DNA from: Phyllobates terribilis
Taxonomy: Eukaryota
Length of the DNA stretch: 64,000 bases
Reading direction: 5' to 3'
Assembly: GCF_046119375.1 (NCBI RefSeq)
Contig: NW_027362767.1
Location: 415,214,001-415,278,000, forward strand
Below the pieces are notes generated by a model. It was not told the origin of the DNA. It was given only the letters and a program-made list of their open reading frames with translations, and did not search any database. Shown piece by piece: positions 18,228 through 64,000 of this stretch. Position 1 is the first letter of the stretch, and each line of letters begins with the position of its first letter. A program made the translations under genes and the position numbers.

Positions 18228-18985
18228 TGGTGAGAGGTGCTGCTGACATGGCATCTGACTGCTGCTTACCAGGTATCCTGAACGGCCAACAGGTATCGTG
18301 CACAACCAGCAAGTATTGTGCCAGGCCAACAGTCGTCGTTCCATGCCAACAGGCATCATGTCGGGCAAGCAGGCGTCGTGCGGGGCCAACAGGTATTGGG
18401 CACAACCAGCATGTAATATGCCAGTCCAGCAGGTGTTGTACACGGCCAACAGGCGTTGAGCAAGGTCAGCAGGTATTGTACACAGCCAACAGGCATCGTG
18501 CACAACCAGCAGGTATTGTGGACGGCCAGCAGGTATTGTACACAGCCAACAGGCATCGTGCCGAGCCAACAGGCATCGTGCACAACCGGCAAGTATTGTG
18601 CACGGCCAACAGGCATCGTGCCAGGCCAACAAGCATCGTGCACAACCAGCAGGTATCGTGCACGGCCAGCAGGTATCGTGCAAGGCCAGCAAGTATTGTG
18701 GACAGCCAGCAGGTATCGTGCACGGCCAGCTGGTATCGTGCAAGGCCAGCAAGTATTGTGGACAACCAGCAAGTATCGTGCACAACCTGCAAGTATTGTG
18801 CAAGGCCAGCAGGTATCGCGCACAACCAGCAAGTATTGTGGACTGCCAGCATGTATCGTGCACAGCCAGTGTCCTGAAAGGCCAGCAGGCATCCTGCACC
18901 ATCCTATTTTTAAGAGTAGGAAGCATGCACGATACCTGGTAAGCAGCTGACAGAACATCAGCAGCGCCTCTAACCACCTGATGCC
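18228..18985. repeat. 20-bp-unit minisatellite bounded by about 55-bp inverted repeats (foldback/MITE-like)
   Basis: Units gtatcgtgcacggccagcag. The left end ...gctgcttaccaggtatc is mirrored by gatacctggtaagcagc at about 18930-18947. Confidence 0.7.
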
Positions 18986-41900: not shown

Positions 41901-42169
41901 ATGTCCAATCAGGAAAGACAGAGAGAGGTAAGGAGACGAAGAAAGCAGGCAACCTAAAGAAATGGGAATGGCTGAATTATTCCCTGACAACAAGCAGAGA
42001 TCTTGAACGTATTGAGGCTTAGAAAGTTACAGAATTTGTCATTATACTCTGCTCAGAGCAGCCATTATCAATGTATATATACCGCGCCGTCCACCTCACC
42101 TTCCATGATGCAGGGCACCACAAGGACCAGTGCCAAAATGACCCGAAAATCCATCCCGTCCCGGTTCAT
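38989..42169 (-). CDS. mpig6b: G6b-B-like inhibitory Ig receptor (Ig-TM-ITIM-ITSM), 238 aa
   Basis: Exons 42169-42100 (signal MNRDGMDFRVILALVLVVPCIME), 41953-41639 (Ig, LQC...GLWRC), 41423-41297 (TM, ILLTIATAALLLLILVISV), 39557-39523, 39242-39169 and 39084-38989 (VSYVEL ITIM, TIYANI ITSM). Phases 1,1,2,1,0 are consistent. Convergent with ddah2, as in human. Confidence 0.72.
40456..40715. mobile_element. TTAA-flanked MITE (T2/Kolobok-like), in a mpig6b intron
   Basis: ttaaggcctgttcacatg ... aaacatacccttaa, with imperfect TIRs between TTAA sites. Many similar elements elsewhere are not listed. Confidence 0.4.
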
Positions 42170-42234
42170 CTTTCCCGTCTGTTCTTCAATTTTTCTGTTT
42201 ATTATCATCCATCACTTTGTTTTAGAACCCAACA

Positions 42235-43030
42235 GCCAGTCACTGTGTCTATACCACCTGTGTGCCAGTCACTGTGTCTATACCACCTGTGTGCCAGTCA
42301 CTGTGTCTATACCACCTGTGTGCCGGTCACTGTGTCTATACCACCTGTGTGCCGGTCATTGTGTCTATACCACCTGTGTGCCGGTCACTGTGTCTATACC
42401 ACCTGTGTGCCAGTCACTGTGTCTATACCACCTGTGTGCCAGTCACTGTGTCTATACCACCTGTGTGCCAGTCACTGTGTCTATACCACCTGTGTGCCGG
42501 TCACTGTGTCTATACCACCTGTGCGCCGGTCACTGTGGCTTTACCACCTGTCTGTTAGTCTCTTTATAGCACTTATGTACCAGCTACTAATTCTCTACTA
42601 ACTATAGTTCACAATACTTGTGTGCCAGCCACTGTATTTATGCCACCTGAGCCTTTGTCTCTTTTCTACCTATTTGGACATTACTTTCTACATCTGTCTG
42701 CCAGTCTCTGTGTCTGTACCTTCTGTGTGTCAGTCTCTGTGTCTGTACTTTCTTTGTGCCAGTCTCTGTGTCTGTACTTGCTGTGTGCCAGTCTGTGTCT
42801 GTACCTCCTGTGTGCCAGTCTCTGTGTCTGTACCTCCTGTGTGCTAGTCTCTGTGTCTGTACCTGCTATGTGCCAGTCTCTGTGCCTGTACTTCCTGTGT
42901 GCCAGTCTCTGTGTCTGTACCCCCTGTGTCCCAGTCACTGTGTCTGTACTTCCTGTATGCCAGTCTCTGTGTCTGTACCTCCTGTGTGCCAGTCTCAGTG
43001 TCTGTACCTCCTGTGTGCCAGTCTGTCTGC
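42235..43030. repeat. Two related 29-bp minisatellite arrays upstream of the mpig6b ATG
   Basis: ccagtcactgtgtctataccacctgtgtg (about 10 units, 42235-42550) and ccagtctctgtgtctgtacctcctgtgtg (about 11 units, 42690-43030). Confidence 0.9.
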
Positions 43031-43284
43031 ATATGAGGGGGCCTCAGTGTCAGTCTGTCCACTTCTTTCACTCTAATCAGAAGGAGATGAGGAAGTGAAG
43101 CTTTATCTGCAACAGGCAGACTCCACATGTTATATCCCTCATCTCTGGGGGATGCCAGCCCGGCTATACATGGGTATAAACCAAAAAACAGAGGAAAGAG
43201 CGGAAACATCCAGAATGACTCATCATTACTTCTTATAACAAGAAGATTATCTGTAAACATAGAATAATGCACAGCCACATGTAC

Positions 43285-43450: not shown

Positions 43451-43831
43451 CAGGGGCATGCTCTCCTCCTCCACCACCCTGTGAACATGGAGGGCGTGCC
43501 ACCCATGTTCTCCACGGTAACGGGTGTAGGCTACTCTGTCTCCGGGGTACTTGGCTGCAGCCGGAGCAGAAGCTGCTTGTGGACGGCCAGTGTCAGCGAC
43601 ACCAGAAGTCAGGGGCATGTCCTCCGCGCTTGCCTTCCGCACATCAAGCGCATACCACCCCCTCTTTCCAGAGTATTGTGGTAACCAGGCCGCTCCTGGG
43701 ATGCATGGCATAGACTGTGGCACTATGTGGGCTGCGGCAGCACCAGCTGTTGGAGCTTCGCCTAAGTTGGGCATCTTTCTCCCCCCCTAGTTCACCCTTG
43801 CTGGGGTAGGACTCACCGCTCCAGATGCTTA
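43447..43831 (-). pseudogene. Degraded older cold-shock-domain ORF remnant (element Z), target of the 43832-53360 insertion
   Basis: Encodes SGKRGWYALDVRK and YPGDRVAYTRYRGEHGWHALHVHRV, homologous to YPGDYVTFTHHKGERGWYALQVYRV of the 49016-50290 ORF. The sequence resumes at 53365 after the CTTA TSD. Confidence 0.65.
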
Positions 43832-45632
43832 TGACGCGCCCCCTGGGCCGTGGGGTACTCGGTGCCGGGCCGGTCGTTGCTAGGGGAGATGTCACAGTGG
43901 CGGTGACCCGGTCCGTGACCTAGGGCGGTCAATAAAAGGGGTTATTTACAGGGGATTTATAGTTTTTATATAATGTTCGTGACGCCACCTGTGGTATGCG
44001 GCTATATGGAGCCGCCGCTGCGGAGCAGGTCCTCTGGAGCTGGTGTGAATGCAGCAGAGTTGGTTTAGCGCTCCACGGGTAGAGCTTAGATCCAGGGCAG
44101 TGTAGATGTTGCTGTTATGGTGTAGTGCAGAGGATGGTGCAGATAATGATCACAGAGACAGTAAGGTGCAGTTCTCAGGCTTTACTCACGGTTTCTTAGA
44201 CTTCCAGTTACCAGTACTAGAGTAACTTCCCACGGCGTTCTGTGCTTACTCAGGGAGGGGTTCAGCAAACTCCCAGGTCTCTCTGGAGTACGTAACGGGG
44301 ATTCTTTATGTGTGTTCCTTCTGGTCGTCTCCCTGCACCTCACACCCAGTGTCTCAGGCCAGTGGCCGCGGACCTTGCCGGGCGACGTCTTCTCTGTCCC
44401 CTGGGTCCTCTATGGCCACCTTTCTGGTGATTAGATGTGGCTTGCGGCTGAAGTACCTGAAATACTGCAGCCTCCGGTTTCCTAGTTGAGGCTTAAAGAA
44501 CTCTGCTAGTTTAGGGACCGGTCCCCTCTGTGCGACCTGACCCCTCCACCTCCTGGCAGATTCGGGCGTACGGGTGGCCTCCAGCACTACCCGTACCTCT
44601 GGGGTCCCTTCCACGTTCATGGAGCCTTTCTCCTGCTCCTCTCTTCAGTATTGGGCCTCTCTGGCTAGGCCCTCCTCCTCCTGAGCAGAGCTCCTACAGA
44701 GCTCCTGCTCCCTCTACTTCTCCTCTCAGACTGCTCTGTCCTTTCAAGATGGCTTCTCTATTTATATCACTTCTTTCAATACTCCCCTGATTTACTTCCT
44801 CCACCCACACCCACTACATGGTTCCCATTACTTTGGTTCCCCACACTCCAACCAGGGACAGGACTCAGCAGGAAGCAACGCATCTTGCCCTTCCTGCTGG
44901 TCTGGAGTAGTGTAGTGTTGGATGCAGGTGTTAGGGTCCAGGGCAGTACTCCTTCCTTACCTGAGTGTGAGATACCACACCTCTGGGTGAGATGCAGTAC
45001 CTCTGTTGTGACTGAACCCACAGGGGCGCCACATACCCCCCTGGTAAAACACAGCACGTCCGCGGGCTGGAACAGAGTAAAAACACAGTTTAGAATGCAT
45101 CCACATAGAATATGATAACCAAAACTTTTCTTCCCTTTATGGGAGGCACATTTTCTTAAACGTTACAGGTTTCCTTAGCATATCAAACATTATGAAAGCA
45201 TTTTCAATAACATTCTTCACATATAAAACATTTTTATCACTCTTCAAGTAAGTTCAGCAAACAGATCTGTAACCAGGTGTCCATCTCAGTGGATAAGGTG
45301 CAACATGAACAACATGAGGGACTCGTCCGCAAACCCTCAACGTAGACCCTGGGCGTGGCTACAGGGCATAGATGATCCAGGTGTTGGACCACGTCTTTGG
45401 CCACGCCAAACGGGTTTTTGTTCTGAGGTCAGTCTTGTTGTATAAAACCAATAAGGGGCACTTTAAGAAGTGCAACTATTTACAGTAAAGTTTCTCAGTT
45501 ATTCACCGTCCATAACCTTAATGTCTCTATACCCTTACTTTATGGACATAAAAACAAATAAATTTTTTAAACTTGCAGTGTCTCTGCTGTACCCTTCCGG
45601 GTAACTATATACAGTCCTTTTAAACAAATTGT

Positions 45633-46534
45633 TCAACAGTGGGGCTCCCTCTGGTGGAACTCTTGGTTTCTGCAGGCTGACCCAGCCAGATCATCAGCCT
45701 CGTACTGTGGGGGCATGTCCTTTCTCTCCTTCACCACTCTGTATACCTGGAGGGCATACCACCCGCGCTCTCCCTTGTGGGTAAAGGTGACACGGTCACC
45801 GGGCTAGAGGTCTCGGCCGGGATGCCCATGTTGGAGATGGGGCTCGACGTCCCGCCGATTTACAAAGACGTCCCGATCCGTCTGCGGCTCTCTGACAAAG
45901 CCCCACCCAGCGTCCAGGTCGAACTTCACCACTATCCCCTCCAGACGGGGACTAGGTGTGGTTGATCTCGCCTTGTGGGCCCGGGTTTTGGCTGCCATGT
46001 TCCGGGCCTCCATGTGCTCCCACCACACCTGCCGGTCATGACGCTCCTTCTCCAACTGCAGGAGCTCCCGTCTGCAGTACTCCTCCCTCCTGAGGGCCTG
46101 GGTCTGGGTCTCCCACGGGAACCCCATGAGGTCCCCATCCCGGTTGTCCCACCGAAACTCCTCTCCTCCTAGGCAGGTAACCGGGGGTGCAGGTGTGGGC
46201 GTCAGGGGGAGTCCCTGCTGGTCTTCAAATTTGGCGGACCAGTCGTAGACGGGGCTTCCGTACACCCACTCAGGTGCGGGGGCAGGTGGCTCCGGTAGGG
46301 GGCCTAGGAGTAGGTCGGCGGAGCAGCGTGCCCGGGATTGGAGGCTCTGCCAGGGGGCCCAGGAGCAGGTCAGCACTCTCAGCGCCCGGGACAGGGAGTC
46401 TCCTCTTACCTGCTCCCACAGTGCCTTCCTCTGCCTCATGGCTCTGTTCAGGCTCCTCCGGGGCTGGGGCGCTGCTGGTGGACTGCAGCGCTGGCTGCTG
46501 CCGGGTCACGATCTTCCCCAGCAGCTCCTCCTTC
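45633..46534 (-). pseudogene. Second, 5'-truncated copy of the cold-shock-domain ORF
   Basis: RLEGIVVKFDLDAGWGFVREPQTDRDVFVNRRDVEPHL...GRDL*PGDRVTFTHKGERGWYALQVYRV, with a nonsense codon at 45804 and a frameshift upstream. Confidence 0.85.
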
Positions 46535-47312
46535 TGACGCGCCCCTTGGGCCGTAGGGTACTCGATGCCGGGCCGGTTGTTGCTAGGAGAGATGTCACAG
46601 TGGCGGTGACTCTTCTGTGTGTTCTCCCTCTCTGGCCGTCTCCCTGCACCTCACACCTAGTGTCCCAAACCAGTAACCGCGGGCCTTGTCGGTCGACATC
46701 TGTTCCGTCCCCTGGATCCTCTATGGCTACCTTCTTGGTGAGACTGATATGGACTGTTGGCTGCAGGACTTGAAATACTGCAGCCTCCGGTTTCTAGTTT
46801 GAGACCGGTCCCCTTTGTGCGGCCTGATCCATCCACCTCCTGGTAGATTCGGGCGTACGGGTGGCCTCCAGCACTGCCCGTACCCCTGGGGTCCCTTCCT
46901 CGTTCCTGGAGCCTTCCTTCTGCTCCTCTCCTTCTCAGTCTTGGGTCTTTCTGCTAGGCCCTCCTCCTGAGCAGAGCTCCTGCAGAGCTCCTGCTCCCTC
47001 TACTTCTCACTAACTGAACTGTCTTCTCTGCTTGACCCAAGATGGTTCCCTCTTTTATATCACTTCCTTTCCTGTGCTCCCCTGAACTACATCCTCCACC
47101 CACACCCACTACATGGTTCCACTCTTCAGCTAGGGACCAGGGATTGTGCTCTCCCTTAGGAGCAATATCGCCCTGCCCCCACTGAAGTGGAATGTGTTGG
47201 ATGCAGGTGTTAGGGTCCCGGGCCGTACTCCTTCCTTACCTGAGAGTGAGATACCACACATCTGGGTGAGATGCAGTACCTCTGTGGCGACCGAACCCTC
47301 AGGGGCGCCATA
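46535..47312 (-). mobile_element. Internally deleted LTR of a sister subfamily, between the two CSD ORF copies
   Basis: Same termini (tgacgcgcccc...ggggcgcca) but a diverged internal sequence matching 47327-48465. Confidence 0.8.
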
Positions 47313-47326
47313 TAGTAAAACACAGC

Positions 47327-48465
47327 TGTGGCGCCCCTGAGGGTTCGGTCGCCACAGAGGTACTGCATCTCACCCAGAGGTGTGATATCTCACTCTCAGG
47401 TAAGGAAGGAGTACAGCTCGGGACCCTAACACCTGCATCCAACACATACCCACAGTGGGGGTAGGGCGAGATTGCTCCTAAGGAAGAGCACAGTCCCGGG
47501 TCCCTAGCTGTGGGGACGGACTATGTAGTGGGTGTGGGTGGAGGAAGTAGCTTAGGGGAGCACATGGAAGGAAGGTATAAATAGAGAAGCCATCTTGTTT
47601 AGTGAGTTCAGATCAGATCAGAACAGTGAGAACAGTCTACAGTGAGAGGAGAGGAGGCAGGAAGGGCTCCAGGAACGGAAGAAGGGACCCCAGGGTACGG
47701 GCAGTGCTGGAGGCCACCCGTACCCCTGAATCTACCAGGAGGTGGAGGGGTCAGGCCTCACAAAGGGGACCGGTCCCTCAACTAGCAGAGCACTTTATGT
47801 CTTAACTAGAAACCGGAGGCTGTAGTATTTCAAGTCCTGCAGCCAACAGTCCATATCAGTCTCACCAAGAAGGTAGCTATAGAGGACCCAGGGGACAGAA
47901 CAGACGTCGCCCGACAAGGCCCGCAGGTACCGGATTGGGACACTAGGCATGAGGTGCAGGGAGACGGCCAGAGAGAGGACATAGAAGGGGGTCCTGTTAA
48001 GTACTCCGGAGATATCTGAGGGTGGACTGAACCCCTCCCTGAGTAAGCGCAGCATGACGAGGGAAGTTACATTGGTGCCTGTAACACTGACTGCAATAAC
48101 CGTGAGTAAAGACCCTGAGGACTGCACTTCATTGTCTCAGTGATTATTGCTGCGCCATCAAACCCTGCACTACAACGCCCAGCACAACCTACAACATCTA
48201 CACTGCCCTGGAGCTAAGCTCTACCTGTGGAGAGCCACACCAACCCTGCTGCACTAACAACCGCTCCAGAGGTTCTGCACAGCAGCGGCGGCTCCACATA
48301 GCCGCATACCACAGGTGGCGTCACGAACTTTGTATATAAATCCCCTGTAAATAATCCCCTTTTATTGACCACCCTGGGTCACGGACGGGGTCACCGCCAC
48401 TGTGACATATCCCCCAGGATCTACCGGCCCAGCACTGGGTACCCCACGGCCAAGGGGGTGCATCA
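47327..48465 (+). mobile_element. Solo LTR of the same superfamily, inverted insertion
   Basis: TGTGGCGCC...GCATCA with 4-bp TSD CAGC (47323-47326 and 48466-48469). TATAAATA at 47576. Confidence 0.88.
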
Positions 48466-49015
48466 CAGCACGTCCACGGGCTGGAACAGAGCAAAACATA
48501 TTTTAAAGACATGCAAAATTTTTGAATGCATTCGCATATAAGATTATAAACATAACAGTTCTTCCCTTTATGGGAGGCACATTTCTTGAACGTTACATTT
48601 GTTTTATCAAACATCATAAAAGCACTTTTAATACCATGTTCCTTTTTACATAAAACATTTGTAGCAGGTTACAGTACGGGTGTCCATTCTCTTTAACAAG
48701 GTGCTACTTGGTGAACATGAGGGACCCGCCCGAAAACCCTCAACGTAGGCCCTGGGCGTGGCTGCAGGGCATGGATGATTCCGGTGCTGGACCACATCTT
48801 CGGCCACGCCAAACGGGTTTTTGTTCTGAGGTCAGCTTTGTATGTATAAAACCAATAAGGGGCACTTTAAGAAGTGCAACTATGTACAACGGAAAGTTTT
48901 GGTTATTCACTGTCCATAACCTGACAGTCCTTTTACCTTTACCGGGTATTTATGCAAACACAAACTTTTCAACTTTTTAAACTTGCAGTGTCACTGCTGT
49001 ACCCTTTCCAGGTAA

Positions 49016-50290
49016 CTATAGACAGTTTCTGTAAAACAGACAGTTTAACAGTGGGGCTCCCTCCGGGGGAAACTCCTGGTTTCTACAGGCTGACCCAGCC
49101 GGGTCTTCAGCCTCGTACTGCGGGGGCATGTCTCTCCTCCCCTTCGCCACTCGGTATACCTGGAGGGCATACCACCCGCGCTCGCCCTTGTGGTGGGTAA
49201 ATGTGACATAGTCACCGGGATAAAGGTCTCGGCCGGCGTGCCCCTGTTGGAGGTGGGGCTCTACCTCCCGCCAGTTGACGAACACGTCCCGATCAGTTTG
49301 CGGCTCTCTCACAAAGCCCCACCCACCATCCAGATCAAATTTTACGACTATCCCCTCCAGACGGGGACTTGACGTAGTGGACCTGGCTTTGCGGGCCCAG
49401 ATTTTGGCCACCATGTTCCGGGCCTCCATTTGTTCCCACCGCACCTGCCGGTCATGACGCTCCTTCTCCATCTGCAGGAGCTCCCGTCTACAGTACTCCT
49501 CCCTCCGGAGGGCCTGGGTCTGCGTCTCCCACGGGAACCCCATGAGGTCTCCCTCCCAGTTGTCCCACTGGAACTCCTCTCCCTCCTGGCAGGTAACCAG
49601 GGGTGCAGGTGTCAAAGGGGGTCCTTGCTGGTCTTCATAATTGGCAGACCAGTCGTAGGCGGGGCTTCCATATACCCACTCGGGTGCGGGGGCTGGTGGC
49701 TCCGGTAGGGGGCCCAGGAGCAGGTCGGCGAAGCAGGCGCCTGGGACGGGAGATTCCACCAGGAGACCGGGGAGCAGATCGGCAGAGCAGGCGCCCGGGA
49801 TCAGAGGTTCCGCCAGGGGACCCAGGAGTAGGTCGGTGGAGCAGGCGCCCAGAATGGGAGGTTCTGCCAAGGGACCCAGGAGCAGATTGGCAGAGCAGGC
49901 GCCCGGGATCGGAGGTTCTGCCAGGGAGCCCAGGAGCAGGTCAGCACTCTCAGCGCCCAGGACAGGGAGTCTCTTATTACGTGCTCCCGCGGCCGCGCTT
50001 GTGCCGTCCTTTGCCTCCTGGCTCTGTTCAGGCTCCTCCGGGGCTGGGACGCTGCTGGTGAAGTGCAGCGCTGGCTGCGGCCGGATCACAAGCTTCTCCA
50101 GCAGCTCCTTCTTCCAGCCGGCGATGGCATCCTGCTGGGCCCTATCCATCCTCCGGCCTAGCTCCTGGATTTCAGCCTGGAAGAACTCGGTATCTTCCAG
50201 GGATAGCTCTGCCATTGCCTCTTCCAGGGTGAGAAGCGTTGTTGATCGCTGCAGGCCTTGGACGGGAGCTTGCTCCTGACTCTCCTCCAT
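49016..50290 (-). CDS. Retroelement-encoded protein: coiled coil, Pro-rich 18-aa repeats, cold-shock domain (about 424 aa)
   Basis: Open from MEESQEQ to the stop. C-terminal GIVVKFDLDGGWGFVREPQTDRDVFVN...LYPGDYVTFTHHKGERGWYALQV aligns to a CSD (RNP1 GWGFV, RNP2 VFV), followed by PPQY. Confidence 0.75.
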   Translation of the reverse strand: MEESQEQAPVQGLQRSTTLLTLEEAMAELSLEDTEFFQAEIQELGRRMDRAQQDAIAGWKKELLEKLVIRPQPALHFTSSVPAPEEPEQSQEAKDGTSAAAGARNKRLPVLGAESADLLLGSLAEPPIPGACSANLLLGPLAEPPILGACSTDLLLGPLAEPLIPGACSADLLPGLLVESPVPGACFADLLLGPLPEPPAPAPEWVYGSPAYDWSANYEDQQGPPLTPAPLVTCQEGEEFQWDNWEGDLMGFPWETQTQALRREEYCRRELLQMEKERHDRQVRWEQMEARNMVAKIWARKARSTTSSPRLEGIVVKFDLDGGWGFVREPQTDRDVFVNWREVEPHLQQGHAGRDLYPGDYVTFTHHKGERGWYALQVYRVAKGRRDMPPQYEAEDPAGSACRNQEFPPEGAPLLNCLFYRNCL

Positions 50291-50446: not shown

Positions 50447-52076
50447 CAGTACAGACCAAAAGTTTGGACACACCTTCTCATTGAAAGGTTTTTCTGTATT
50501 TTCATGATTATGAAAATTGTACATTCACACTGAATGCATCAAAACTATGAATTAACACATGTGGAATTATATACTTAACAAAAAAGTGTGAAACAACTGA
50601 AAATATGTTTTAGATTCTAGGTTCTTCAAAGTAGCCACCTTTTGCTTTAATGACTGCTTTGCACACTCTTGGCATTCTCTTGATGAGCATCAAGAGGTAG
50701 TCACCGGAAATGGTCTTCCAACAATCTTGAAGGAGTTCCCAGAGATGCTTATCACTTGTTGGCCCTTTTGCCTTCACTCTGCGGTCCAGCTCACCCCAAA
50801 CCATCTCGATTGGGTTCAGGTCTGGTGACTGTGGAGGCCAGGTCATCTGGGGTAGCACCCCATCAATTTCCTTCTTGGTCAAATAGCCCTTACACAGCCT
50901 GGAGGTGTGTTTGGGGTCATTGTCCTGTTGAAAAATAAATGATGGTGCAACTAAACGCAAACCGGATGGAATAGCATGCCGCTGCAAGATGCTGTGGTAG
51001 TCATGCTGGTTCAGTATGCCTTCAATTTTGAATAAATCCCAAATAGAGTCACCAGCAAAGCACCCCCACACCATCACACCTCCTCCTCCATGCTTCACGG
51101 TGGGAACCAGGCATGTAGGGTCCATCCGTTCACCTTTTCTGTTTCGCACAAAGACACGGTGGTTGGAACCAAAGATCTCAAACTTGGACTCATCAGACCA
51201 AAGCACAGATTTCCACTGGTCTAATGTCCATTCCTTGTGTTCTTTAGCCTAAACAAGTCTCTTCTGCTTGTTGCCTGTCCTTAGCAGTGGTTTCCTAGCA
51301 GCTATTTTACCATAAAGACCTGCTGCACAAAGTCTCCTCTTAACAATTGTTGAAGAGATGTGTCTGCTGCTAGAACTCTGTGTGGCATTGACCTGGTCTC
51401 TAATCTGAGCTGCTGTTAACCTGCGATTTCTGAGGCTGGTGACTCGGATAAACTTATCCTCAGAAGCAGAAGTGACTCTTGGTCTTCCTTTCCTTGGGCA
51501 GTCCTCATATGAGCCAGTTTCTTTGTAGCGCTTGATGGTTTTTGCAACTGCACTTGGGGACGCTTTCAAAGTTTTCCCAATTTTTCGGACTGACTGACCT
51601 TCATTTCTTAAAATAATGATGGCCACTCGTTTTTCTTTACTTAGCTGATTTTTTCTTGCAATAATACAAATTCTAACAGTCTATTCAGTAGGACTATCAG
51701 CTGTGTATCCACCAGACTTTTGCACAACACAACTGATGGTCCCAACCCCATTTATAATGCAAGAAATCCCACTTATTAAACCTGACAGGGCACACCTGTG
51801 AAGTGAAAACCATTTCCGGTGACAATCTCTTGAAGCTCATCAAGAGAATGCCAAGAGTGTGCAAAGCAGTCATCAAAGCAAAAGGTGGCTACTTTGAAGA
51901 ACCTAGAATATAAGACATATTTTCAGTTGTTTCACACTTTTTTGTTAAGTATATAATTCCACATGTGTTAATTCATAGTTTTGATGCCTTCAGTGTGAAT
52001 GTACAATTTTCATAGTCATGAAAATACAGAAAAATCTTTAAATGAGAAGGTGTGTCCAAACTTTTGGTCTGTACTG
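50447..52076 (-). mobile_element. Near-intact Tc1 (DD34E) transposon with long TIRs, inserted in the LTR element leader
   Basis: TA TSD and about 270-bp TIRs starting cagtacagaccaaaagtttggacac. The transposase at 51626-50610 is in one frame with a single stop at 51249 ([23 protein letters not shown]). Confidence 0.92.
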
Positions 52077-52268: not shown

Positions 52269-52286
52269 ATCCTGTTCGTGACGCCA
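52269..52286 (-). promoter_or_regulatory. Primer-binding site complementary to tRNA-Ser(CGA)
   Basis: TGGCGTCACGAACAGGAT, a few bp after the 5' LTR, is complementary to the tRNA 3' end ...ATCCTGTTCGTGACG-CCA (recalled as vertebrate Ser-CGA). Confidence 0.75.
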
Positions 52287-53499
52287 AAGTTGACCCGCCC
52301 CCTGGGCCGTGGGGTACCCGGTGCCGGGCTATATGGAGCCGCCGCTGCGATGCAGGTCCTCTGAAGCTGGTGTGAATGCAGCAGAGTTGGTTTAGCTCTC
52401 CACAGGTAGAGCTTAGCTCCAGGGCAGTGTAGATGTTGCTGTTATGGTGTAGTGCAGAGGATTGCGCAGATAATGATCACAGAGACAGTGAGGTGCAGTC
52501 CTCAGGCTTTACTCACGGTTTCTTAGACTTCCAGTTACCAGTACTAGAGTAACTTCCCACGTCGTTCTGTGCTTACTCAGGGAGGGGTTCAGCAAACTCC
52601 CAGGTCTCTCCGGAGTATGTAACGGGACCCCCTTCTGTGTGTTCCTTCTGGCCATCTCCCTGCACCTCACACCCAGTGTCTCAGGCCAGTGGCCGCGGAC
52701 CTTGCCAGGCGACGACTTCTCTGTCCCATGGGTCCTCTATGGCCACCTTTCTGGTGATTAGATGTGGCTTGCGGCTGCAGTACCTGAAATACTGCAGCCT
52801 CCGGTTTCCTAGTTGAGGCTTAAACAACTCTGCTAGTTTAGGGACTGATCCCCTCTGTGCGACCTGACCCCTCCACCTCCTGGCAGATTCGGGCGTACGG
52901 GTGGCCTCCAGCACTACCCGTACCCCTGGGGTCCCTTCCATGTTCCTGGAGCCTTTCTCCTGCTCCTCTCTTCAGTCTTGGGCCTCTCTGGCTAGGCCCT
53001 CCTCCTTCTGAGCAGAGCTCCTACCGAGTACTTGCTCCCTCTACTTCTCCTCTCAGACTGCTTTGTCCTTTCAAGATGGCTTCTCTATTTATATCACTTC
53101 TTTCAATGCTCCCCTGATTTACTTCCTCCACCCACACCCACTACATGGTTCCCCCTACTTTGGTTCCCCCCACTCCAACCAGGGACAGGACTCAGCAGGA
53201 AGCAACGCATCTTACCCTTCCTGCTGGTCTGGAGCAGTGTAGTGTTGGATGCAGGTGTTAGGGTCCCGAGCAGTACTCCTTCCTTACCTGAGAGTGAGAT
53301 ACCACACCTCTGGATGAGATGCAGTACCTCTGTGGCGACTGAACCCGCAGGGGCGCCACACTTACTGTATGTTGTCGCTCCTTGCACAGCCTGTCACCGA
53401 GACTGCAGGTCTCTGTACAGCTGCACTCTTGCTGCACAGCTTCTCCCACTGGTGTTGTATTCACAGAGGTGTAGGTCCACTGGAGCTGATGGTGACGCC

Positions 53500-54539
53500 G
53501 CAGAGTTGGTTCAGCTCTCCACGGGCAGGGCTAAGCTCCAGGGCATTATATGATGAATTGTGTTGGTAGATGTTGCTGGTGCTGTGTAGTGCAGGGCTGG
53601 TAATGGTGCAGCAATTATTAAAGGACACAGTGGGGTGCAGTCTTCAGGTTTTACTCACAGTTGTTCAAGACTTCAGGTTACAGTTACCGGTGTGTAACCG
53701 CCCATGTCGTCCTGTGTCCTCCGGGGTAGGGGTCCAGCAAACCCTCAGGTATCTCAGGAGCACTTGCACGGGACCCCGTTCTATGTACCTTTCCTGGCCG
53801 TCTCACTGCGCTGGCTCTCGCCCTCCTGCCCTGCGCCTCACAATCAGTGTCCCAAGCCAGTGGCCTTGGACCTTGTTGGGCGACGTGCTCTCAGTCCCCT
53901 GGATGCTATGCGGCCACCTTTTCGGTGATGTAATTGTGGATTTTGGCTGCAACACCTTGAAAATGCAGCAGCCGCCGGTTGTCTAGCTGAGCCTGGTTGT
54001 TCTCCACTAGTTTTGGGGCCGGTCCCCTTCTGCGGCCTGATCCCTCCATGTCAGCGTGGATTCGGGCGCACAGGTGGCATCCGCACTCACCGTGCCCCTG
54101 GGATCCCCTCTGTCTTTCTCTTGGAGCCCTTCTCACTGCTCCTCTCTTCTTTCTTTCCTTCTCCTGGGCCTCTCTCACTGGGCCCAACTCCTCTCTCAAC
54201 TCCCTTGAGCAGAGCTCCTCCTGAGCTCCTGCTCTGAACTCTCACTCTGACTGAACTCTCTCTAGAACCTTCTACCATCTCTTTTATACTGCTATGCTCT
54301 GTGCTCCATTGAACTGCTTCCTCCAAACCACCTCCTCTACCTAGTTCCACCCTTCAGCTAGGAACCAGGGACTGTGCTCTTCCTTAGGAGCAATCTTGCC
54401 CTTCCCTATTGAAGTGGAGTGTATTGGATGTGGGTGTGTGGGTCCCGGGTAGTACTCCTTCCTTACCCGAGAGTGGGGTACCACACCTCTGGGTGAGATG
54501 CAGTACCTCTGTGGCAACTGGATCTGCAGGGGCGCCACA
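53500..54539 (-). mobile_element. Older LTR of a third subfamily (5' part of element Z)
   Basis: Ends in ggggcgccaca and shares the gagatgcagtacctctgtggc and gggtcc...agtactccttccttacc blocks with the other LTRs, but is more diverged. Confidence 0.7.
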
Positions 54540-56376
54540 TATATGCTGCCTCCCCCCCTCAATCCATGTATATATGCTGCCTCCCCCCACCAATCTATGT
54601 GTATATGCTGCCTCTCCCCCACAAATCCATGTATATATGCTGCCTCCCCCCACCAATCTATGTGTATATGCTGCCTCCCCCCCCCAATCTATGTATATAT
54701 GCTTCCTTCCCCCCTCAATCCATGTATATATGCTGCCTTCCGCCCCCAATCCATGTGTATATGCTGCCACCCCTCAATTCATGTGTATATGCTGCCTCCC
54801 CAATCCATGTATATATGCTGCCCTCCCCCAATCCATGTATATATGCTGCCCTCCTCCAATCCATGTGTATATGCTGCCTTCCGCCCCCCCCAATCCATGT
54901 GTATGTGATGCCTTCCCCCCTCAATCCATGTATATATGCTGCCTTCCACCCCATTCCATGTATAAATGCTGCCTTCCCCCAATCTATGTATATATGCTGC
55001 CCTCCCCATCAATCCATGTATATATGCTTCCTTACCCCCTCAATCCATGTATATATGTTGCCTTCCCTCCCTCAATCCATGTATATATACTGCCCCCCCA
55101 ATCCATGTATATATGCAGCCTGCCCCTCCAATCGATGTATATATGCTGCCCTCCTCAATCCATGTATATATGCTGCTTTCCCCCCAATCCATGTATATAT
55201 GCTGCCTTTCCTCCCCTTAATCCATGTATATATGCTGACTTCCCCCCACCAATCCATGTATATATGCTGCCTTCTGCCCCCCCAGTCCATGAATATATGC
55301 TGCCTTCCGCCCCCCATCCATGTATATATGCTGCCTTCCGCCCCCCCATCCATGTATATATGCTGCCTCCCCCCCAGTCCATGTATAGGTGCTGCCTCCC
55401 CCCCAATCCATGTATATATACTGCCTTCTGCCGCCCCCAGTCTATGTATATATGCTGCCTCCCCCCCAATCCAAGTGTATATGCTGCCTTCCGCCCCCAC
55501 CAGTCCATGTATATATGCTGCCTTCCGCCCCCCCATCCATGTATATATGCTGCCTCCCCCCAGTCCATGTATAGGTGCTGCCTCCCCCCCAATCCATGTA
55601 TATATACTGCCTTCCGCCCGCCCCCAGTCCATGTATATATGCTGCCTCCCCCCCAATCCATGTATATATGCTGCCTTCTACCCCCACCAGTCCATGTATA
55701 TATGCTGCCTTCCGCCCCCCCATCCATGTATATATGCTGCCTCCCCCCCAGTCCATGTATATGTGCTGCTTCCCCGCAATCCATGTATGTATGCTGCCTT
55801 GCCCCCCTCAATCCATGTATATATGCTGCCTTCCACCCCCAATCCATGTATATATGCTGCCTTTCCCCCCTCAATCCATGTATATATGCTGCCTCCCCCA
55901 ATCCATGTACATATGCTGCCTTCCGCCCCCCCCAATCCATGTATATATGCTGCCCCCCCAATCCATGTATATATGCTGCCCCCCTCAATTCATGTGTATA
56001 TACTGCCTTTCTCCCTCAATCCATGTATATATGCTGCCTCCCCCCCAATCCATGTATATATGCTGCCCTCCCCAATCCATGTATATATGCTGCCTCCCCC
56101 CCAATCCATGTATATATGCTTCCCTCCACAATCCTTGTATATATGCTGCCTCCCCCCCAATCCATGTATATATGCTGCCCTCCCCAATCCATGTATATAT
56201 GCTGCCTTCCCCCCAATCCATGGATATATGCTGCCTTCCCCCCCAATCCATGTATATATGCTGACTTCCACCTCCCCCAATCCATGTATATATGCTGCCC
56301 TCCTCCAATCCATGTATATATGCTGCCTCCCCCCCAGTCCATGTATATGTGCTGCCTCCCCCAATCCATGTATATG
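54540..56376. repeat. About 1.8-kb minisatellite with 25-30-bp units
   Basis: Unit ccaatccatgtatatatgctgcctccc with variable C-tracts. Confidence 0.95.
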
Positions 56377-58520
56377 TGTCACCCAGGGGGATATAGGAGA
56401 CTCGGTACCCGGGCCCTTTTCCTTGTTTAGGAGGTCACGGCAGTCGGCTCCCGGGCCCGTACTCTCGGTCTCTCTTTAAAAAGGGGTTTTAGTGTATAGT
56501 TTGTCTCGTGACGCCACCTGTGGTTTCCGTTAATGGTTACCGGCGCTGCTGCAGACCTCCGGGGGGTGATGGGATGGCAGCTGGGATGTTTCTGCTCCCC
56601 ACAGGCGGAGCGGGCCCCCGGGGCAGTGTAGGTGCAAATGGTGGTGATGCTGGGGCTTGCAGTGCAGGAGAGATGGCGCAGCAGGAGTAACTGACAGAGA
56701 CAGGGGATTCACTTCAGTACCTTTACTGGTGCGGATGTCAGGTACGGTCCAGGGTACTCAGTAGGAAGGGTGCACTTCAGGACTTCTCCCCAGTGAGCGG
56801 GTATAAGGCCTCCTGGTTTCTTGAGACTGTTGCGGTTGTCTTACCTCCATCCTTACTAATCAGGCAGGTTTTACTGTTGTCAAATCTGGAGTTTAGCACA
56901 GTGTAGGGCTCTCTTTCCCACTGGTCATCGAGCTTGTGACCTCTTCTTTTCCGCTTTAGCACTATCTCTCCAGGTGCCAAGGGTTCTGCTGGTGCATGTT
57001 TTTTATACTGCTTTACCTGTCTTTCCCTCAACTTGTTTAGTCTGTCTTCGACACAGGCCTGTACCTTCCTGTACTGCTCTTGCCGACTTGTGTCCCAATC
57101 TTCAGTGGACGTACCTGCAGCAGGTTCTACCACTCCGTGCTCCAGGTCCATGGGCAATTTTCCAGGTCTTGCTCTCATGAGGTACGCTGGGGTACAGTTT
57201 GTAGAACTCATGGGTATGTGGTTATACAGGTCCACTAGGTCAGGTAGCTTTTCTGGCCACTGGTTCCTTTCTTCCAAGGGTAGGGTTTTCAACAGGTCTA
57301 TAACGATGTTGTTCATTTTCTCGCACATGCCGTTGGTTTGCGGATGATATGGCGTTGTTCGGATCTTCTTGCATCCATACAGGTGGCAGAATTCCTTGAA
57401 TAGCTCAGCTTTGAAAGCAGGACCTTGATCTGTGAGCACCTTTTCCGGATATCCATGGGGCCTGCAGAAGTAGACTTGGAACGTTCTTGCCGCAGTTTCT
57501 GCTGTCAGGTCCTTGACAGGGGCTACCACCAGGAACCGGGAATAGTGATCCACCATGGTCAGGGCATAGGAGTAGCCTGATCTGCTGGGTGACAGTTTGA
57601 CGTGATCTAGAGCGACAATCTCCAGGGGTTGGGTTGTTTTGATGGACTGCAAGGGTGTTTTCTGGCTGCCGTAGTCTTTTCTTCTAAGGCTACAGGGCCC
57701 ACAATTCCGGCACCACCTCTCTATGGAACTCCGCATTCCAACCCAATAGAATCGGTCCTTCAACAAGGTTTCCAGCTTCTTCCAGCCAAAGTGACCTGCT
57801 TGGTCGTGGTAGGCCTCTAACACCATCTGGATATCCATCCTTGGTACAACAATCTGCCTCACCAATACATGGTCTTGGGATTGACATACCTTCTGCACAG
57901 CTTCTCTCTGTAGATGAACAGCTGGCTTCTCTCATTCCACAGGTTTTTAACTTGTGGGGGAGCATCCTTCTCCAGGTGAGAACCTTCTTGGGTTATCAGT
58001 CTTTTGATGAGGCTGACAACCGGGTCACTGTCCTGGGTCTCCTTCCAGCTGTGATGAGGTAGAGGGTTTGGCGTCCTACCATGACATCTTCTGGAGGCGT
58101 GTTGCTCGTGGACCACTCCGCTTCTGTGGAAGGCAGGTAATTCAACTTCTTCTAGGTTATCCACTTCATCCTCGGTGTCTGACTGGTGGGGCATCCTTGA
58201 CAGGACATCGGCATTGGTGTTCTTGTGACCTGCCTGGTACTTGATTGTGAATTGATAATTCGACAACCTAGCCACCCAACGCTGTTCCATGGCTCCCAAC
58301 CTGGCTGTCTCCAGGTGTGTCAAGCGATTATTGTCGGTAAAGGCTGTGAATTTAGTTGAGGCTAGGTAATGCTTGAATCTTTCGGTGATAGCCCAGACCA
58401 AGGCCAGGAACTCCAGCTTGAAGGAACTGTAATTCTCAGGGTTCCTCTCAGTAGGGCGAAGCTTCCTACTGGCATACGCAATTACCTTTTCTCTGCCATT
58501 TTGCTTCTGGTACAACACAG

Positions 58521-61068
58521 TGTTAGAACCCTCCTGTTAGTTTTTTCTATCTTGTGTTTTGCGGTCACGTGACCATCTGCCTATATATTCCAGCTCCGCC
58601 CTTCTGGCTTTGCTGCACTTCAGTGTTGTTTGACTGTTTTGCTAGCCTGGTGCTTCGGTGCCTATCTCTGTCAGTTTGCTTGGTCCTCTGGGACCTCTAG
58701 TACGTTTTGTAAGTTTGTCTTCTTCTACAACAATTTCTGTTTAGGAGGTGTCCCATTTTTGTCCCAGTCCTTAGTTCTTTTAGGGACCCCTCCCTTTATT
58801 CTATAGGTCTTCGTTCAGACTAGCCAAGGACGAAGGCGGGTCTGTTCACTAGGAACAGGCAGCCCGCTACATCGTAGGGATTCAGATTAGTCTTACTGTA
58901 GGGACAGCTTTCCCCTATCTTTCCTTAGTACTTGTTGCAGATCAAAACAGTAAGTCCAGCCCAAAAAACTTAAGGGAAGAAATTCGGGGATCAGTATGGT
59001 TTCCGTCCAGGATTTGGTTCAATGCCTGCAGGGATTGTCTCTGGAGGTGGCCGAGCTTCAGCAACACGTGAGTGACGCGCCCAGGGGATGGGGACGACTC
59101 GGCGCCCAGGCCTTGTTGTTGGTTTTGGGGGATGCCACGGTGGCCGGTTCCCGGGCCGTACCCTGGGGTCACTCTTAAAAAGGGAAGGAATGATGGGGGA
59201 AAGGTGTATGGGATAGGGAAAGTCCGTAACTCCACCTGTGGTGTCTGGTGAGGATCACCAGCGCTGCTAAAGTCCTCTGAGGCCGGTGGTCAGGCAGCTT
59301 AGTTGGTGCGACTCCCAACAGGTGGAGTGGGGCCTCAGGGCAGCGTAGAAGGGATGCAGGACAGAGGGGACCCAGCCGGGTCAGAGGAAGAATAGGCACA
59401 CTCACAACAGTTCACTTCACTACCTTTACTGGTGGTGTTTCAGGCACGATCCAGGCCACTGTAGGGTGAAGGTGCATATCGGGACTCTCCCCAGTGAGCG
59501 GGTGTGGGGCCTCCTGTTTCTTGCCTTTTCCTGATAAGTTTATGACCTGCCTGAAGCTAGGCCTAACTTGGTCTCTGTCTTGCATCGGCTGACCTGGTGG
59601 TAGGGCCTTCTGTTGGAGATCACACTCCCTGGTCTCTTGGGCCTCAGTGACTCCTGACCCTGGTATGACAGTCAGCTTTTGGTGTTCCTGGGACATATAG
59701 TTCACCAGGGGTTCCGGTAGTTTCTGCTGGTCGTAGAGATCCCTGCAGACACGAACCCGGTGTCCGTTATATGAACTTGGGGTGAGCTGGCTAAGCTCCT
59801 CTGCCCCCTATGTAGCTCGCTTACTCAACTTGCCTTTGGCCGTGCTCGGGGCCCTCACTAGGCTTCACACTGGCAGTAGGCCTCGCTACTCTTCACCACT
59901 CTTACGGCGTCGGCACGCCTTGGGCTCACTAACTGAGCTCTCTGAGTCTGTACTGACCTGAATACCTCTCTGGCTGCAGCAGACTGTAGACTGCATACTC
60001 CAGGCTGTAGATTCCAGACTAGACTCTCACCCAGACTGAACTGCCTAGCTCCACCTTCCCTTTTTATATCCCTATCCGGGCTCCCTCTGGTGGTCTGAGG
60101 TGGAAGGTGGAGGTGTGTGAATGCTAAGAGGGCCTCTTGTGGAGGAATCCGTCCATGCACCCCTCTAGGATCTGTAGCACCAATGCGCAGCAGGGCGCCA
60201 CATGAGTAGATGTCCTGGAGCGCATTTTGTCGAACCCAAGGTAGGACTGCCTGATGTTTTTTATGGTAAACAGCAAGATTTTTTTTCCTTTAAAAATGCT
60301 TGTTTGTTATATTTTCGTTTGAGACCAAGATCCTCTGGGAATGAATCACAGCGCATTGGTTTTATTATGTCACTTTTGCGCAAAGAACCACAGGGTTGGG
60401 CCTTTTCTCTCCAGCCTAATGATCCGTGTTTAAGTTCTGTGGAAGAATTTTTTTCTGCTATGGGGCTACTATATGACGATCCTGATCGAATCTCATCTGC
60501 TGAATCAGAACTTAGACGTTTGAATCAGGGGTCATATGATGTCTCTGCTCCTAGGCTTGTTAAAGCTTTCCACAGGAGGTTTCCGGATAGGCCAGGGCCT
60601 GGAGGATCCGGAGGATCCTCATAAAAGAGGGGTACTGTTAGAACCCTCCTGTTAGTTTTTTCTATCTTGTGTTTTGCGGTCACGTGACCATCTGCCTATA
60701 TATTCCAGCTCCGCCCTTCTGGCTTTGCTGGACTTCAGTGTTGTTTGACTCTTTTGCTAGCCTGGTGCTTCGGTGCCTATCTCTGTCAGTTTGCTTGGTC
60801 CTCTGGGACCTCTAGTACTTTTTGTCACTTTGTCTTTTGTGTTCTACAACAATTTCTGTTTAGGAGGTGTCCCATTTTTGTCCCAGTCCTTAGTTCTTTC
60901 AGGGACCCCTCCCTTTATTCTATAGGTCTTCGTTCAGACTAGCCGAGGACGAAGGCTGGTCTGTTCACTAGGAACAGGCAGTCCGCTACATCGTAGGGAT
61001 TCAGCTTAGTCTTACTGTAGGGACAGCTTTCCCCTATCTTTCCTTAGTACTTGTTGCAGATCATAACA
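58521..61068 (+). mobile_element. Sushi-type chromovirus deletion derivative nested in the Gypsy RNase H region
   Basis: LTRs 58521-58949 and 60636-61068, with 5-bp TSD CACAG. Gag MVSVQDLVQCLQGLSLEVAEL...EPKVGLPDVFYG is fused to the integrase/chromodomain tail APRLVKAFHRRFPDRP. PPT aaagaggggtac. Confidence 0.88.
59073..60202 (-). mobile_element. Solo LTR nested in the chromovirus gag
   Basis: tgacgcgccc...gggcgccaca with 4-bp TSD TGAG (59069-59072 and 60203-60206). The gag frame rejoins across the insertion. Confidence 0.88.
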
Positions 61069-63335
61069 CACAGCTCCCAGTTCTCGTTGCTGGCGTCGGT
61101 GTACAACAGGAAAGGCTGGCTGTAGTCAGGGTAAGCCAGGATTTCTTCACCGGTTAGGACTTCCTTCTTTGATGCAAAAGACTCAGTCTGCTCTTTGCCC
61201 CACTGGAATGGGGGACTTTTTCCTCTTTTGGACTGTCCTACCAGGAGATCTTGTAGTGGTGCTACCTTTTTGGTATAGTCCTTTATGACTCCTGTAGTAC
61301 CCGACCAGTCCCAGGAATTGCCGTACTTCTTTGATGTTTCTCAGTTCAGGCCACTTCTGGATGGCAGTGACCTTCTCCGGGTCTGGTGCTACTCCCTCTG
61401 AGCTGACTACGTGTTCCAGGTACTGAACATTCTGTTTGAGCAGGTGGTACTTGGAAGGTTTTAGTTTCATCCCATACCGGGACAATGCTTCAAATACCTT
61501 CGCCAGGTGCTTCAGATGGTCTTTATACGTCCTTGAGTACACGATAATGTCATCCAGGTACAGCAGCACTGTCTCAAAGTTCCGGTGTCCCAAGCAACAC
61601 TCCATCAACCTCTGGAACGATCCGGGTGCGTTGCAGAGTCCAAACGGCATGCTGTTGAATTCGCACAGTCCCATCGGGGTGGTGAAGGCTGTCTTCTCCC
61701 GGTCTTCCTCAGCAACAGAGACTTGCCAGTACCCGCTAGTGAGATCCAATGTAGAGAAGTAATTGGCAGATTTTAGTGCAGCCAGGGATTCCTCTATACG
61801 GGGCAAAGGGTATGCATCTTGATGTGTTATTCGATTAATTTGTCTATAATCTACACACATCCTCATGCTACAGTCCTTCTTTCTGACCAGGACCAGGGGA
61901 GCTGCCCAGGGAATACAGCTATCCCTTACGACCCCTGCCTTTTTTATGTCATGCAACATTTCCTTGGCTTTTTGGTAATGTGCTGGTGGTATGGGTCTGT
62001 AACGCTCTTTAATGGGTGGATGGTTACCGGTGGGTATGTGGTGTTGTACCCCTTTAACCCTTCCAAAATCAAGTGGGTGCTTACTAAACACTTGTTCATA
62101 TTCCTGAACCACTCTGTAAACATCGTGTTTCTGATGGACAGGAGTGGCGTCAGTCCCAACATGGAGCTGTTGACACCAATCCTCCAGCTGAGCTTCGGAG
62201 TCATTGTCCTCCACTGTATCTGGTGGGGTCAAGGATACCACTGTGTGTATGGCATCATTATTCACAGTTTACAATCTGGCAACAGTGGCGTATCTTGGCA
62301 ATTTGACTTCCTCCTCCCCACAATTTAGGAGACGTACAGGTACCCTCCCATTGCGTACATCAACTACCCCTCTAGCAGTTAGGAGTGTAGGTCTGTGCTC
62401 TGAGCTAATAGGCTCCACTACCGCCTGGTAGTTCTGTCCCTTGAGACCTATTGCTGCCCTACACCAAATCAGCATTTCACTCATTGGGGGAATCACAATG
62501 GGTATCGGGTCTGTCACCCGTACATTACCAATCTCACCACCTGTTAGCTTTACCTGTTGCTGGTACAGGAGGGCTCGAATTTCTTTCTAGAGCACCTTCC
62601 TCTGCCCTGGTTTGGCAGTGTCAGCAATCTGTTGAAGTAAAAACAACACTTCTCCCAGTTACCAACAATATTTGTACCAAGTATCATATACGGATTGGTA
62701 TCACCAGGGTTAGATTCTATAACAATTAGTCCTTGGTCCTTTAGTTCCACTCTCTCCACCTTCACTGTCACGTCTTTAACCCCTACTAGGTTAAGAGGAA
62801 GGCCGTTAGAGGCATACACAGAGAGGTTCGGGTGGAGTTCATCTATGGACCAGTACCTTTTGTAGAGGATATCAGGTATGATGGTTACCTGTGAGCCGGT
62901 GTCCAGTAATGCAGGTGTTGCTATGCCGTCCAGCACGATGGACAGGAAAGGTCTTCCTCCTACAAACCGGTCGTGCCAGCTTGATGGGCCTGGTTGATTT
63001 ACTCCTGGGTGTCGACCCCTTGGCCCCAGGGTTTGCCCGTTTAAAGGACAGTTCCGCACGGTATTGCCGGCCTTGTGGCAACGGTAGCAGATGAATTCTC
63101 CTGGAGGGCGACGTTTGTCGTTGATCCACCCACGGGGTGGTGTTGTCCTCCTACGGGGTGGCGTTGTCCTCTTTCTTCTCCTCATCCAGGGGACATCCTC
63201 AGGACTGTCGGCGAGTAGGATCCTTCCTTCCGGCTCAGGCTCCGTCTGTAGCTGCAGGGTGCTCAGGACAGTGGCCAGGGTTTTACTTAGCTGATGCACT
63301 TCAGAGCGCAGGCTGTCCAGCTCACTAGGGGGCAC

Positions 63336-64000
63336 TGTGACGCCCAGCTGCGCTTGGTATCACAGATCCTAGAAGGGTGTATTGATGGATTCCTCCACAA
63401 GAGGCCCCTATAGCCATTCACACATCTCCACCTTCCACCTCAGACCACCAGAGGGAGCCCGTTAGGGATAGATAAATAGGGAAGGTGGAGCCAGGCAGCG
63501 GTCAGAGTCTAGTTAGAGTCAGAGTCTGGTGTAGCAGTGAGTCCAGTGCAGTCTGAGAAGAGTTACCCCAGAGGACAAAAGCCTGTTCCAGCTCCTGCAA
63601 TTGCTATCCTGCAGTGGAGCTTATTCAGATCAAGACTCCGGGTAGCTCAGAGAGGTGAGCTTTAGGTGTGCCGGCGCCATAAGATCGGTGAAGCGCGGCA
63701 AGCTGCCATTAGTGTGAGTAGCCTAGTGAGGGCCCGAGTAGGCCGAAGGCGAGTGGAGAGTAAGTACATAGGGGGCAGAGGAGCTTAACTAGCTCACCCC
63801 GAAGAATTTACCGGACACCGGGTCCGAAGCTTACCGGGATCTCTATGACCCAGTAAGATATAACCGGAATCCCTGGAGAACTACAAGTCCCAGGATCGCT
63901 AAAGTGCTGATACGTAACAGAGCCGGGAGACACATAGGCCCCGCAAGCTGAGGAGCGTGTACTCCAAGAGAAGGCCCTACCACAAGGTCAGCCAGCGCAG
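63336..64000 (+). mobile_element. LTR of the 59073-60202 family inserted into the Gypsy gag, truncated by the window end
   Basis: tgtgacgcccagctgcgcttggtatcacagatcctagaaggg matches the reverse complement of 60160-60202. Confidence 0.8.

Follow-up and report, generated by a model that had tools for sequence, protein, structure and literature searches.

A cold-shock domain gene shaped by past purifying selection in nested non-autonomous LTR elements of a poison frog

The subject of this study is a stretch of 64,000 nucleotides from the genome of the poison frog Phyllobates terribilis (contig NW_027362767.1, positions 415,214,001 to 415,278,000 of the forward strand), which we call the window and number from its first nucleotide. 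It contains two copies of a cold-shock domain (CSD), copy A and copy B, both of which lie in nested non-autonomous Ty3/Gypsy-type long terminal repeat (LTR) elements with one sense open reading frame (ORF) each. A first-pass annotation had described the CSD as a transposon cargo gene whose protein appeared to have been needed while the element subfamilies diverged. Our analysis shows that strong purifying selection acted on the C-terminal half of the ORF, comprising a long helix, the CSD and the tail, while two subfamilies diverged, and that copies decay once they are inserted. The term "cargo gene" undersells the CSD ORF, which is the sole gene of its element.

Organisation of the nested elements

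The outer element is bounded by LTR1 and LTR3 (Table 1), which differ by 4.9% substitutions over 1034 nt (51 sites), and the G-rich or purine tract AGGGGGG stands before LTR3. The primer-binding-site-like 18-mer is a putative match to tRNA-Ser(CGA); a literature search for the primer-site motif returned no description. Since LTR2 differs by 13-15% from LTR1 and LTR3 and interrupts the ORF of copy A, copy B is a second subfamily nested inside the first. Its 5' LTR is missing and was presumably lost by recombination.

Without counting the Tc1/mariner insertion and the solo LTR, the internal region spans about 2.2 kb, and the LTRs measure about 1.2 kb. The Tc1/mariner insertion holds a broken DDE transposase (Pfam DDE_3, 1e-9) and is an unrelated passenger. 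No gag or pol was found in the internal region, where Pfam searches of the long ORF gave the CSD alone. The ORF starts about 350 nt past the primer site with both flanks free of gag/pol remnants, and both subfamilies have the same 3' layout.

The element is probably present in many copies. From two DNA sequencing runs belonging to different studies, X1 and X4, contigs were placed on 48640-49697 at 80-100% likeness (4097 and 3440 contigs, respectively); their depth is not a copy number, and the CSD-bearing pieces in the window itself number three. A search of sequencing runs listed no RNA run, and X9 and X10, which may be RNA runs, gave 40 and 45 contigs that carry no weight as to expression. 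In the 3' non-coding region, a more conserved box has diverged by 9% between copies A and B compared with 19-20% on both sides, and its summed contig depth (again, not a copy number) is far above that of the ORF in both runs. Folding of this box gave no stable structure (z 0.2), and we regard it as a candidate cis signal common to other families.

Table 1. Features of the nested elements and of their surroundings in the window.
Feature	Position	Strand	Remarks
Outer target-site duplication, right copy	53361..53364	.	CTTA; flanks LTR1
LTR1, 5' LTR of outer element	52291..53360	-	TG...CA; deletion near 3' end makes it shorter than LTR3
Primer-binding-site-like 18-mer	52269..52286	-	begins TGG, 4 nt past LTR1
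Tc1/mariner insertion in 5' leader	50447..52076	-	~270-nt inverted repeats, TA duplication
ORF of copy B, open	49016..50287	-	423 codons; single sense ORF of internal region
CSD of copy B	49148..49360	-	Pfam PF00313
3' non-coding internal region of copy B	48466..49015	-	holds more conserved box 48712-48891
Solo LTR, same family, opposite orientation	47327..48465	+	at 3' end of copy B; target duplication CAGC
LTR2, 3' LTR of copy B	46535..47312	-	shortened
Internal region of copy A	45034..46534	-	5'-truncated frameshifted ORF, 3' non-coding region, G-rich tract
CSD of copy A, broken	45735..45943	-	family profile 162 bits
LTR3, 3' LTR of outer element	43832..45033	-	1202 nt, TG...CA
Outer target-site duplication, left copy	43828..43831	.	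CTTA; flanks LTR3
Older related CSD element relic	43475..43675	-	just outside outer element
LTR4, older truncated LTR, same type	53470..54541	-	~22% from LTR1 and LTR3
Broken autonomous Ty3/Gypsy gag-pol with nested inserts	56777..63359	-	zinc knuckle, protease, reverse transcriptase, integrase
Inverted repeats and minisatellites	2119-5072, 14401-15031, 18230-18929, 42127-43092, 54540-56380		

Divergence of the two copies

Global alignment of the CSD of copy A (45943-45735) with that of copy B (49360-49147), followed by a codon count, gave 71 codons: 68 are comparable, 2 contain gaps and one is a stop codon in copy A. These 68 codons carry 20 synonymous and 7 replacement changes, matching a first-pass estimate by hand of about 20 to about 7 over some 70 codons, and mismatches at codon positions 1, 2 and 3 number 4, 2 and 22. 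With a dN (nonsynonymous divergence) of 0.048 and a dS (synonymous divergence) of 0.50, dN/dS is 0.10 (kappa 2; bootstrap confidence interval (CI) 0.02-0.25), which excludes values near 1 and bears out the proposal of purifying selection during subfamily divergence; the binomial p of the synonymous excess is 1e-7 to 9e-7. The GWGFV and DVFV cores are identical in both copies; the residue preceding GWGF and one residue just past DVFV differ.

An artefactual origin of the excess, whether through CpG decay, a bias towards transitions, the alignment or selection acting on a different frame, is extremely improbable: the region is GC-rich and an antisense frame with shared third positions gives a dN/dS of 0.20, yet this frame has 3 and 5 stops across the two copies, copy B is stop-free in the ORF frame alone among six frames tested over 49736-49060, and the same method shows no synonymous excess in the N-terminal stretch of the ORF. 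Neutral models with a kappa of 1-4 and CpG rates of x1-x20 predict a synonymous share of 23-31%, under which at least 20 of 28 changes being synonymous has a probability of at most 1e-5, and without all 7 CpG-context differences there remain 16 synonymous against 5 replacement changes (p 4e-6), so that CpG decay alone fails as an explanation. Codon count, CpG modelling and frame test together refute an artefact.

Copy A is a pseudogene. Its CSD is interrupted by a premature stop (45806-45804) and by a gap of 3 nt near 45783, and beyond the CSD there are a frameshifting deletion of 161 nt near 46327 upstream and a 1-nt gap in the tail.

Selection was not specific to the CSD, since the 125 codons upstream of it (26 synonymous, 19 non-synonymous) and the 27-codon tail after it (8 and 4) are constrained as well. 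Over the C-terminal 221 codons, 54 synonymous and 31 non-synonymous differences give a dN/dS of 0.16 (CI 0.10-0.26). The 64 shared codons N-terminal of the tandem repeats described below have a dS of only 0.055, compared with 0.41 in the C-terminal part (Fisher p 3e-5). Judged by its sequence, this N-terminal stretch has a different history with a more recent common origin, and its low dS points to one of the two copies probably being a mosaic.

The decay rate between LTR1 and LTR3 (51/1034), which is a borrowed rate when applied to copy B, predicts 7.4 replacements over 150 CSD sites, and 7 were observed. Decay after insertion could thus account for all 7 replacements, which places selection on the element lineage and not on copies A and B, and the CSDs of the master copies may differ almost solely at synonymous sites. 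This is partly borne out by the contigs, which set copy B apart at 3 of the 7 replacement sites (85%, 97% and 99% of X1 depth), and two further sites fall within a single CpG. The idea that the protein was needed while the subfamilies diverged therefore holds as past selection at the level of the lineage; it does not describe the present copies, as copy A is a pseudogene and several of the replacements in copy B are nearly private to it. The 3' non-coding internal region, which had been put forward as a neutral control, is itself constrained, with an A/B divergence of 15.8% (82/521) against 31% at synonymous sites (Fisher p 2e-5), and is therefore unusable for that purpose; it has diverged more than the replacement sites of the CSD (p 2e-4).

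The encoded protein, its relatives and the neighbouring elements

The protein of copy B consists, in order, of N-terminal helices (~17-67), a disordered Pro-rich linker, a long helix (~256-304), the CSD and an acidic tail. A 54-nt tandem repeat in the linker (49698-49967) encodes an 18-residue Pro-rich unit in copy B, while in copy A most of the units are lost and out of frame. The CSD of copy B scores 31.3 bits against Pfam PF00313 (gathering cut-off 27) and is the only Pfam domain. AlphaFold predicts the long helix and a five-strand barrel for the C-terminal part (mean predicted local distance difference test (pLDDT) score of 86), and the full-length model adds the N-terminal helices and an extended linker of low confidence. 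The helices of the protein may serve in oligomerisation or in the recruitment of partners. There is no capsid-like domain in the full-length model, and none of 13 family proteins has a CCHC zinc knuckle. A gag origin of the N-terminal helix was considered and rejected, its likeness to a nearby gag coil being matched by 27 of 500 shuffles and not significant.

Foldseek searches with the CSD model matched CspA, YBX1 and YBX2, with 27-30% identity to the YBX CSD structures, and the best matches of a PDB profile search were YBX1 and YBX2 at 41.9 bits, followed by CspA at 38.4. At 20 residues, the long loop of the domain is close in length to that of the pig Y-box row (19), whereas most single-domain Csp-like rows have 11-17. 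The sequence G-W-Y-A occurs often in the final CSD strand of the family. The signal for the donor is mixed: profile scores and loop length lean towards Y-box proteins, and the Foldseek rank leans towards CspA. In the ESM Atlas the whole protein had no usable match, and the C-terminal part matched bacterial CSD clusters (0.84-0.85), which is a lead only; a short-protein profile search returned 11 matches, all generic Csp-like and none from a frog; NCBIfam gave only Csp models below cut-off; a viral fold library gave only generic CSD proteins at 19-24% identity; and none of 36 pattern matches in JGI metagenomes was confirmed.

Of 61 hits in an unfiltered search, 5 reached E <= 1e-10, every one of them a poison-frog protein. 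Four species, Phyllobates terribilis, Ranitomeya variabilis, R. imitator and Anomaloglossus baeobatrachus, contribute 10 family members, to which we add P0031 of Bufo bufo, annotated as 'Y-box-binding protein 2-A-like', and the Logan protein P0052. Across three frog families the relatives are 31-67% identical and have long branches; the CSD is the best conserved part among those of the four poison-frog species and the toad, and the Phyllobates relative P0001 starts with an N-terminal stretch similar to that of copy B. None of the 11 longer profile hits contains a reverse transcriptase (RT) or integrase domain. We presume that the relatives, too, sit in LTR elements.

A tree of 33 CSD rows (12 family or Y-box-like and 21 other rows, excluding the partial P0001, P0005, P0065 and P0066) placed 9 family rows on one branch (95/94). 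The family and the 3 Y-box-like rows were not joined, and a joint clade was not rejected (approximately unbiased (AU) test, p 0.092); in a tree of 76 rows the toad and Logan rows join the family weakly (87/56). Four of the 10 poison-frog relatives are gene models fused to unrelated domains. More broadly, the frog models P0001, P0064, P0065, P0066 and P0031 fuse the ORF to, for example, R3H coiled-coil protein 1 or MADF, or are named Y-box-like; they are probably annotation chimeras, with exonisation being possible. Frog gene models labelled 'uncharacterized', 'CSD domain-containing' or 'Y-box-like' can be explained as probable element-derived sequence.

Outside the outer element, the relic matches the family profile at 43555-43475 (E 6e-8) and 43675-43634 (E 0.07), that is, with two tandem C-terminal CSD halves about 120 nt apart, which suggests a family with a duplicated segment; LTR4 probably belongs with it. 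The broken gag-pol matches the Pfam families RVT_1, rve, Integrase_H2C2 and Asp_protease_2. LTRs of the CSD elements and the neighbouring Ty3 LTR pieces have similar ends and local matches of 68-71% over ~130-190 nt, and Ty3/Gypsy elements of this type are a candidate class of helper.

The primer-site-like motif recurs within the LTR, some 150 nt from the 3' end. This second copy is present in LTR3, in the solo LTR and in the neighbouring Ty3 LTR remnant (43975-43987, 48316-48326 and 56506-56516), and it may mark a former lengthening of the LTR or serve as a further signal for priming or pairing. LTR2 and the solo LTR stand head-to-head and form a 122-nt inverted repeat (47189-47450; 96%, 18-nt loop), a possible source of double-stranded RNA, on which Rfam gave just sub-threshold matches to miRNA hairpins. 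At least 8 related LTRs or LTR pieces are nested in the 20 kb of 43400-64000, several of them inside elements of the same type, which may reflect a hotspot of self-insertion or a graveyard where recombination is low. Within the Ty3 pol, two 430-nt repeats that are 96% alike (58521-58949 and 60636-61068) enclose an insertion that is probably another small LTR element and contains a solo LTR (60202-59074). Elsewhere, the window contains an 879-nt inverted repeat pair (95%) and minisatellites with units of 90, 20, 29 and ~28-31 nt.

Possible role of the gene and comparison with known systems

If an element without the means to replicate on its own keeps a gene, that gene must have benefited the copies that carry it, and binding to their RNA would be the simplest way. 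We therefore favour, with a probability of roughly 0.55, the reading that the ORF protein is a self-encoded and self-serving RNA chaperone that aids the element RNA in hitch-hiking on autonomous Ty3 machinery. As a Y-box-like RNA-binding chaperone, the protein would coat the element's own RNA in the germ line, and the coated RNA would be stabilised or remodelled and helped to compete for packaging and reverse transcription in autonomous Ty3 particles, which would recognise the LTR ends and primer site of the element. Selection would act on master copies at each round of transcription, so that the protein would boost the spread of the very copy encoding it, which points to action in cis. According to earlier reports, YB-1 stabilises RNA of the human immunodeficiency virus (HIV) and supports the production of murine leukaemia virus (MLV) and mouse mammary tumour virus (MMTV) (PMC6040738), YBX1 and CSDA co-purify with L1 ribonucleoproteins (RNPs) (PMC3753637), and Gypsy RNA is abundant in Oophaga ova (PMC6278860).

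Several points weigh against this reading. Action in cis is read from the selection signal alone, and the selection result itself comes from the single pair of copies A and B together with a variant list that covers 40 of the 250 rows of the contig variant table. The 33 listed rows within the ORF hold 16 synonymous and 17 non-synonymous variants; near-private variants of copy B make up 3 and 8 of these and the others 13 and 9, with a cut-off on the near-private share of 0.88 that was chosen after viewing the list. The 64 shared N-terminal codons show no constraint (3 synonymous and 16 non-synonymous differences; dN/dS 2.3, CI 0.83-8.7). In the protein, the KWF tryptophan and the VFVH histidine of Y-box and Csp proteins, which stack on RNA, are replaced in all 12 members holding the region while GWGF and VFV are kept, so that RNA binding may be altered or weak.

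Alternatively, the CSD ORF could be an accessory gene of an autonomous Ty3 family in which selection acted, the elements of the window being deletion derivatives that inherited the ORF. We consider this unlikely. LTR retrotransposons with extra ORFs are known (PMC5408684); the contig depth of the 3' box far above that of the ORF means that other element types may share this box; and with the neighbouring pol truncated at the 3' end, a downstream ORF would be possible there. The position of the ORF shortly past the primer site without a flanking gag/pol remnant argues against this origin, as do the 3' layout shared by the subfamilies and the lack of RT or integrase in all longer profile hits, from which a separate ORF would escape notice.

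Still less probable is a role in counter-defence or host manipulation, in which an altered Y-box mimic would act mainly in trans by protecting element RNA against small-RNA silencing or rivalling oocyte Y-box proteins. The long branches and the identities of 31-67% among relatives in three frog families would fit, as would the replacement of two canonical aromatic positions together with the conserved G-W-Y-A of the last strand, and FRGY2 is reported to mask mRNA in Xenopus oocytes (PMC1477856). However, a purely trans benefit would be shared with cheaters and be harder to maintain in a non-autonomous family, and selection on the CSD was purifying, not diversifying. Selection by the host, on a domesticated gene or on a host gene amplified by LTR elements, is very unlikely: NCBI annotates relatives as genes, including the Y-box-named one of Bufo bufo, but copy A is a broken gene and copy B shows replacements of its own, ORF, LTRs and 3' region diverge together, the fusions in four of ten poison-frog relatives are as for scattered element pieces, and the family does not group with the Y-box rows in the tree.

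Beyond a self-serving RNA chaperone as such, we tentatively suggest that a lineage of non-autonomous LTR elements in hyloid frogs (dendrobatids, aromobatids and toads) kept one captured cold-shock protein as its sole gene, a stand-alone Y-box-like chaperone that would mask and deliver the element's own RNA in the oocyte and so outcompete autonomous Ty3 RNA for Ty3 particles. If true, the element would be a parasite of a parasite with an RNP protein of its own and would add to the large amount of Ty3 sequence in poison-frog genomes.

That retroelement ORFs should be under purifying selection is ordinary and to be expected; the unusual point is the gene, a CSD as the sole gene of an element unable to copy itself. 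The main texts of three papers on frog genomes and transposable elements contain no occurrence of 'cold shock' (PMC6278860, 10.1101/2023.11.06.565769, PMC12822217). Searches of the open-access literature on retroelement CSDs and on constraint in the ORFs of non-autonomous LTR elements turned up no LTR element that encodes a CSD and no description of the present family; supplements, subscription papers and Repbase/Dfam lay outside their range and may hold an entry for it.

The frog element resembles the non-autonomous LTR elements mobilised by Ty3/Gypsy in its TG...CA LTRs, primer site, G-rich tract and 4-bp target duplication, and likewise in having no pol, solo LTRs and LTR ends similar to those of a nearby Ty3 element. 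LARD/TRIM and single-ORF MaLR are class names for non-autonomous LTR elements, from which the frog element differs by keeping a constrained CSD ORF of 423 codons without capsid fold or zinc knuckle. In bdelloid rotifers, LTR retrotransposons carry an ORF3 that encodes a GDSL esterase or a DEDDy exonuclease, and thus a cellular-type domain thought to aid the replication cycle, as may be the case here; yet ORF3 adds to gag-pol and is reported to show no significant departure from neutrality within the genome, whereas the frog CSD ORF is the sole gene and clearly constrained (PMC5408684).

With Y-box proteins (YBX1, YBX2/FRGY2) and CspA, the frog protein shares the CSD fold and the GWGF and VFV cores, as well as a loop of Y-box length; it differs in its identity of only ~30%, the replaced KWF tryptophan and VFVH histidine, the long helix before the CSD and a branch of its own. 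L1 ORF1p combines a coiled coil with an RNA-binding domain, and non-LTR ORF1 esterases carry an enzyme domain. By analogy, without any claim of homology, the frog protein may be likened to these as an element-encoded helical region joined to a nucleic-acid-binding domain that plausibly builds an RNP, although the domain and the class of element are different. Y-box proteins serve retroviral RNA as host cofactors and are also components of L1 particles, so that an element with its own Y-box-like version offers a natural way of testing whether germ-line retrotransposition is limited by the coating of RNA.

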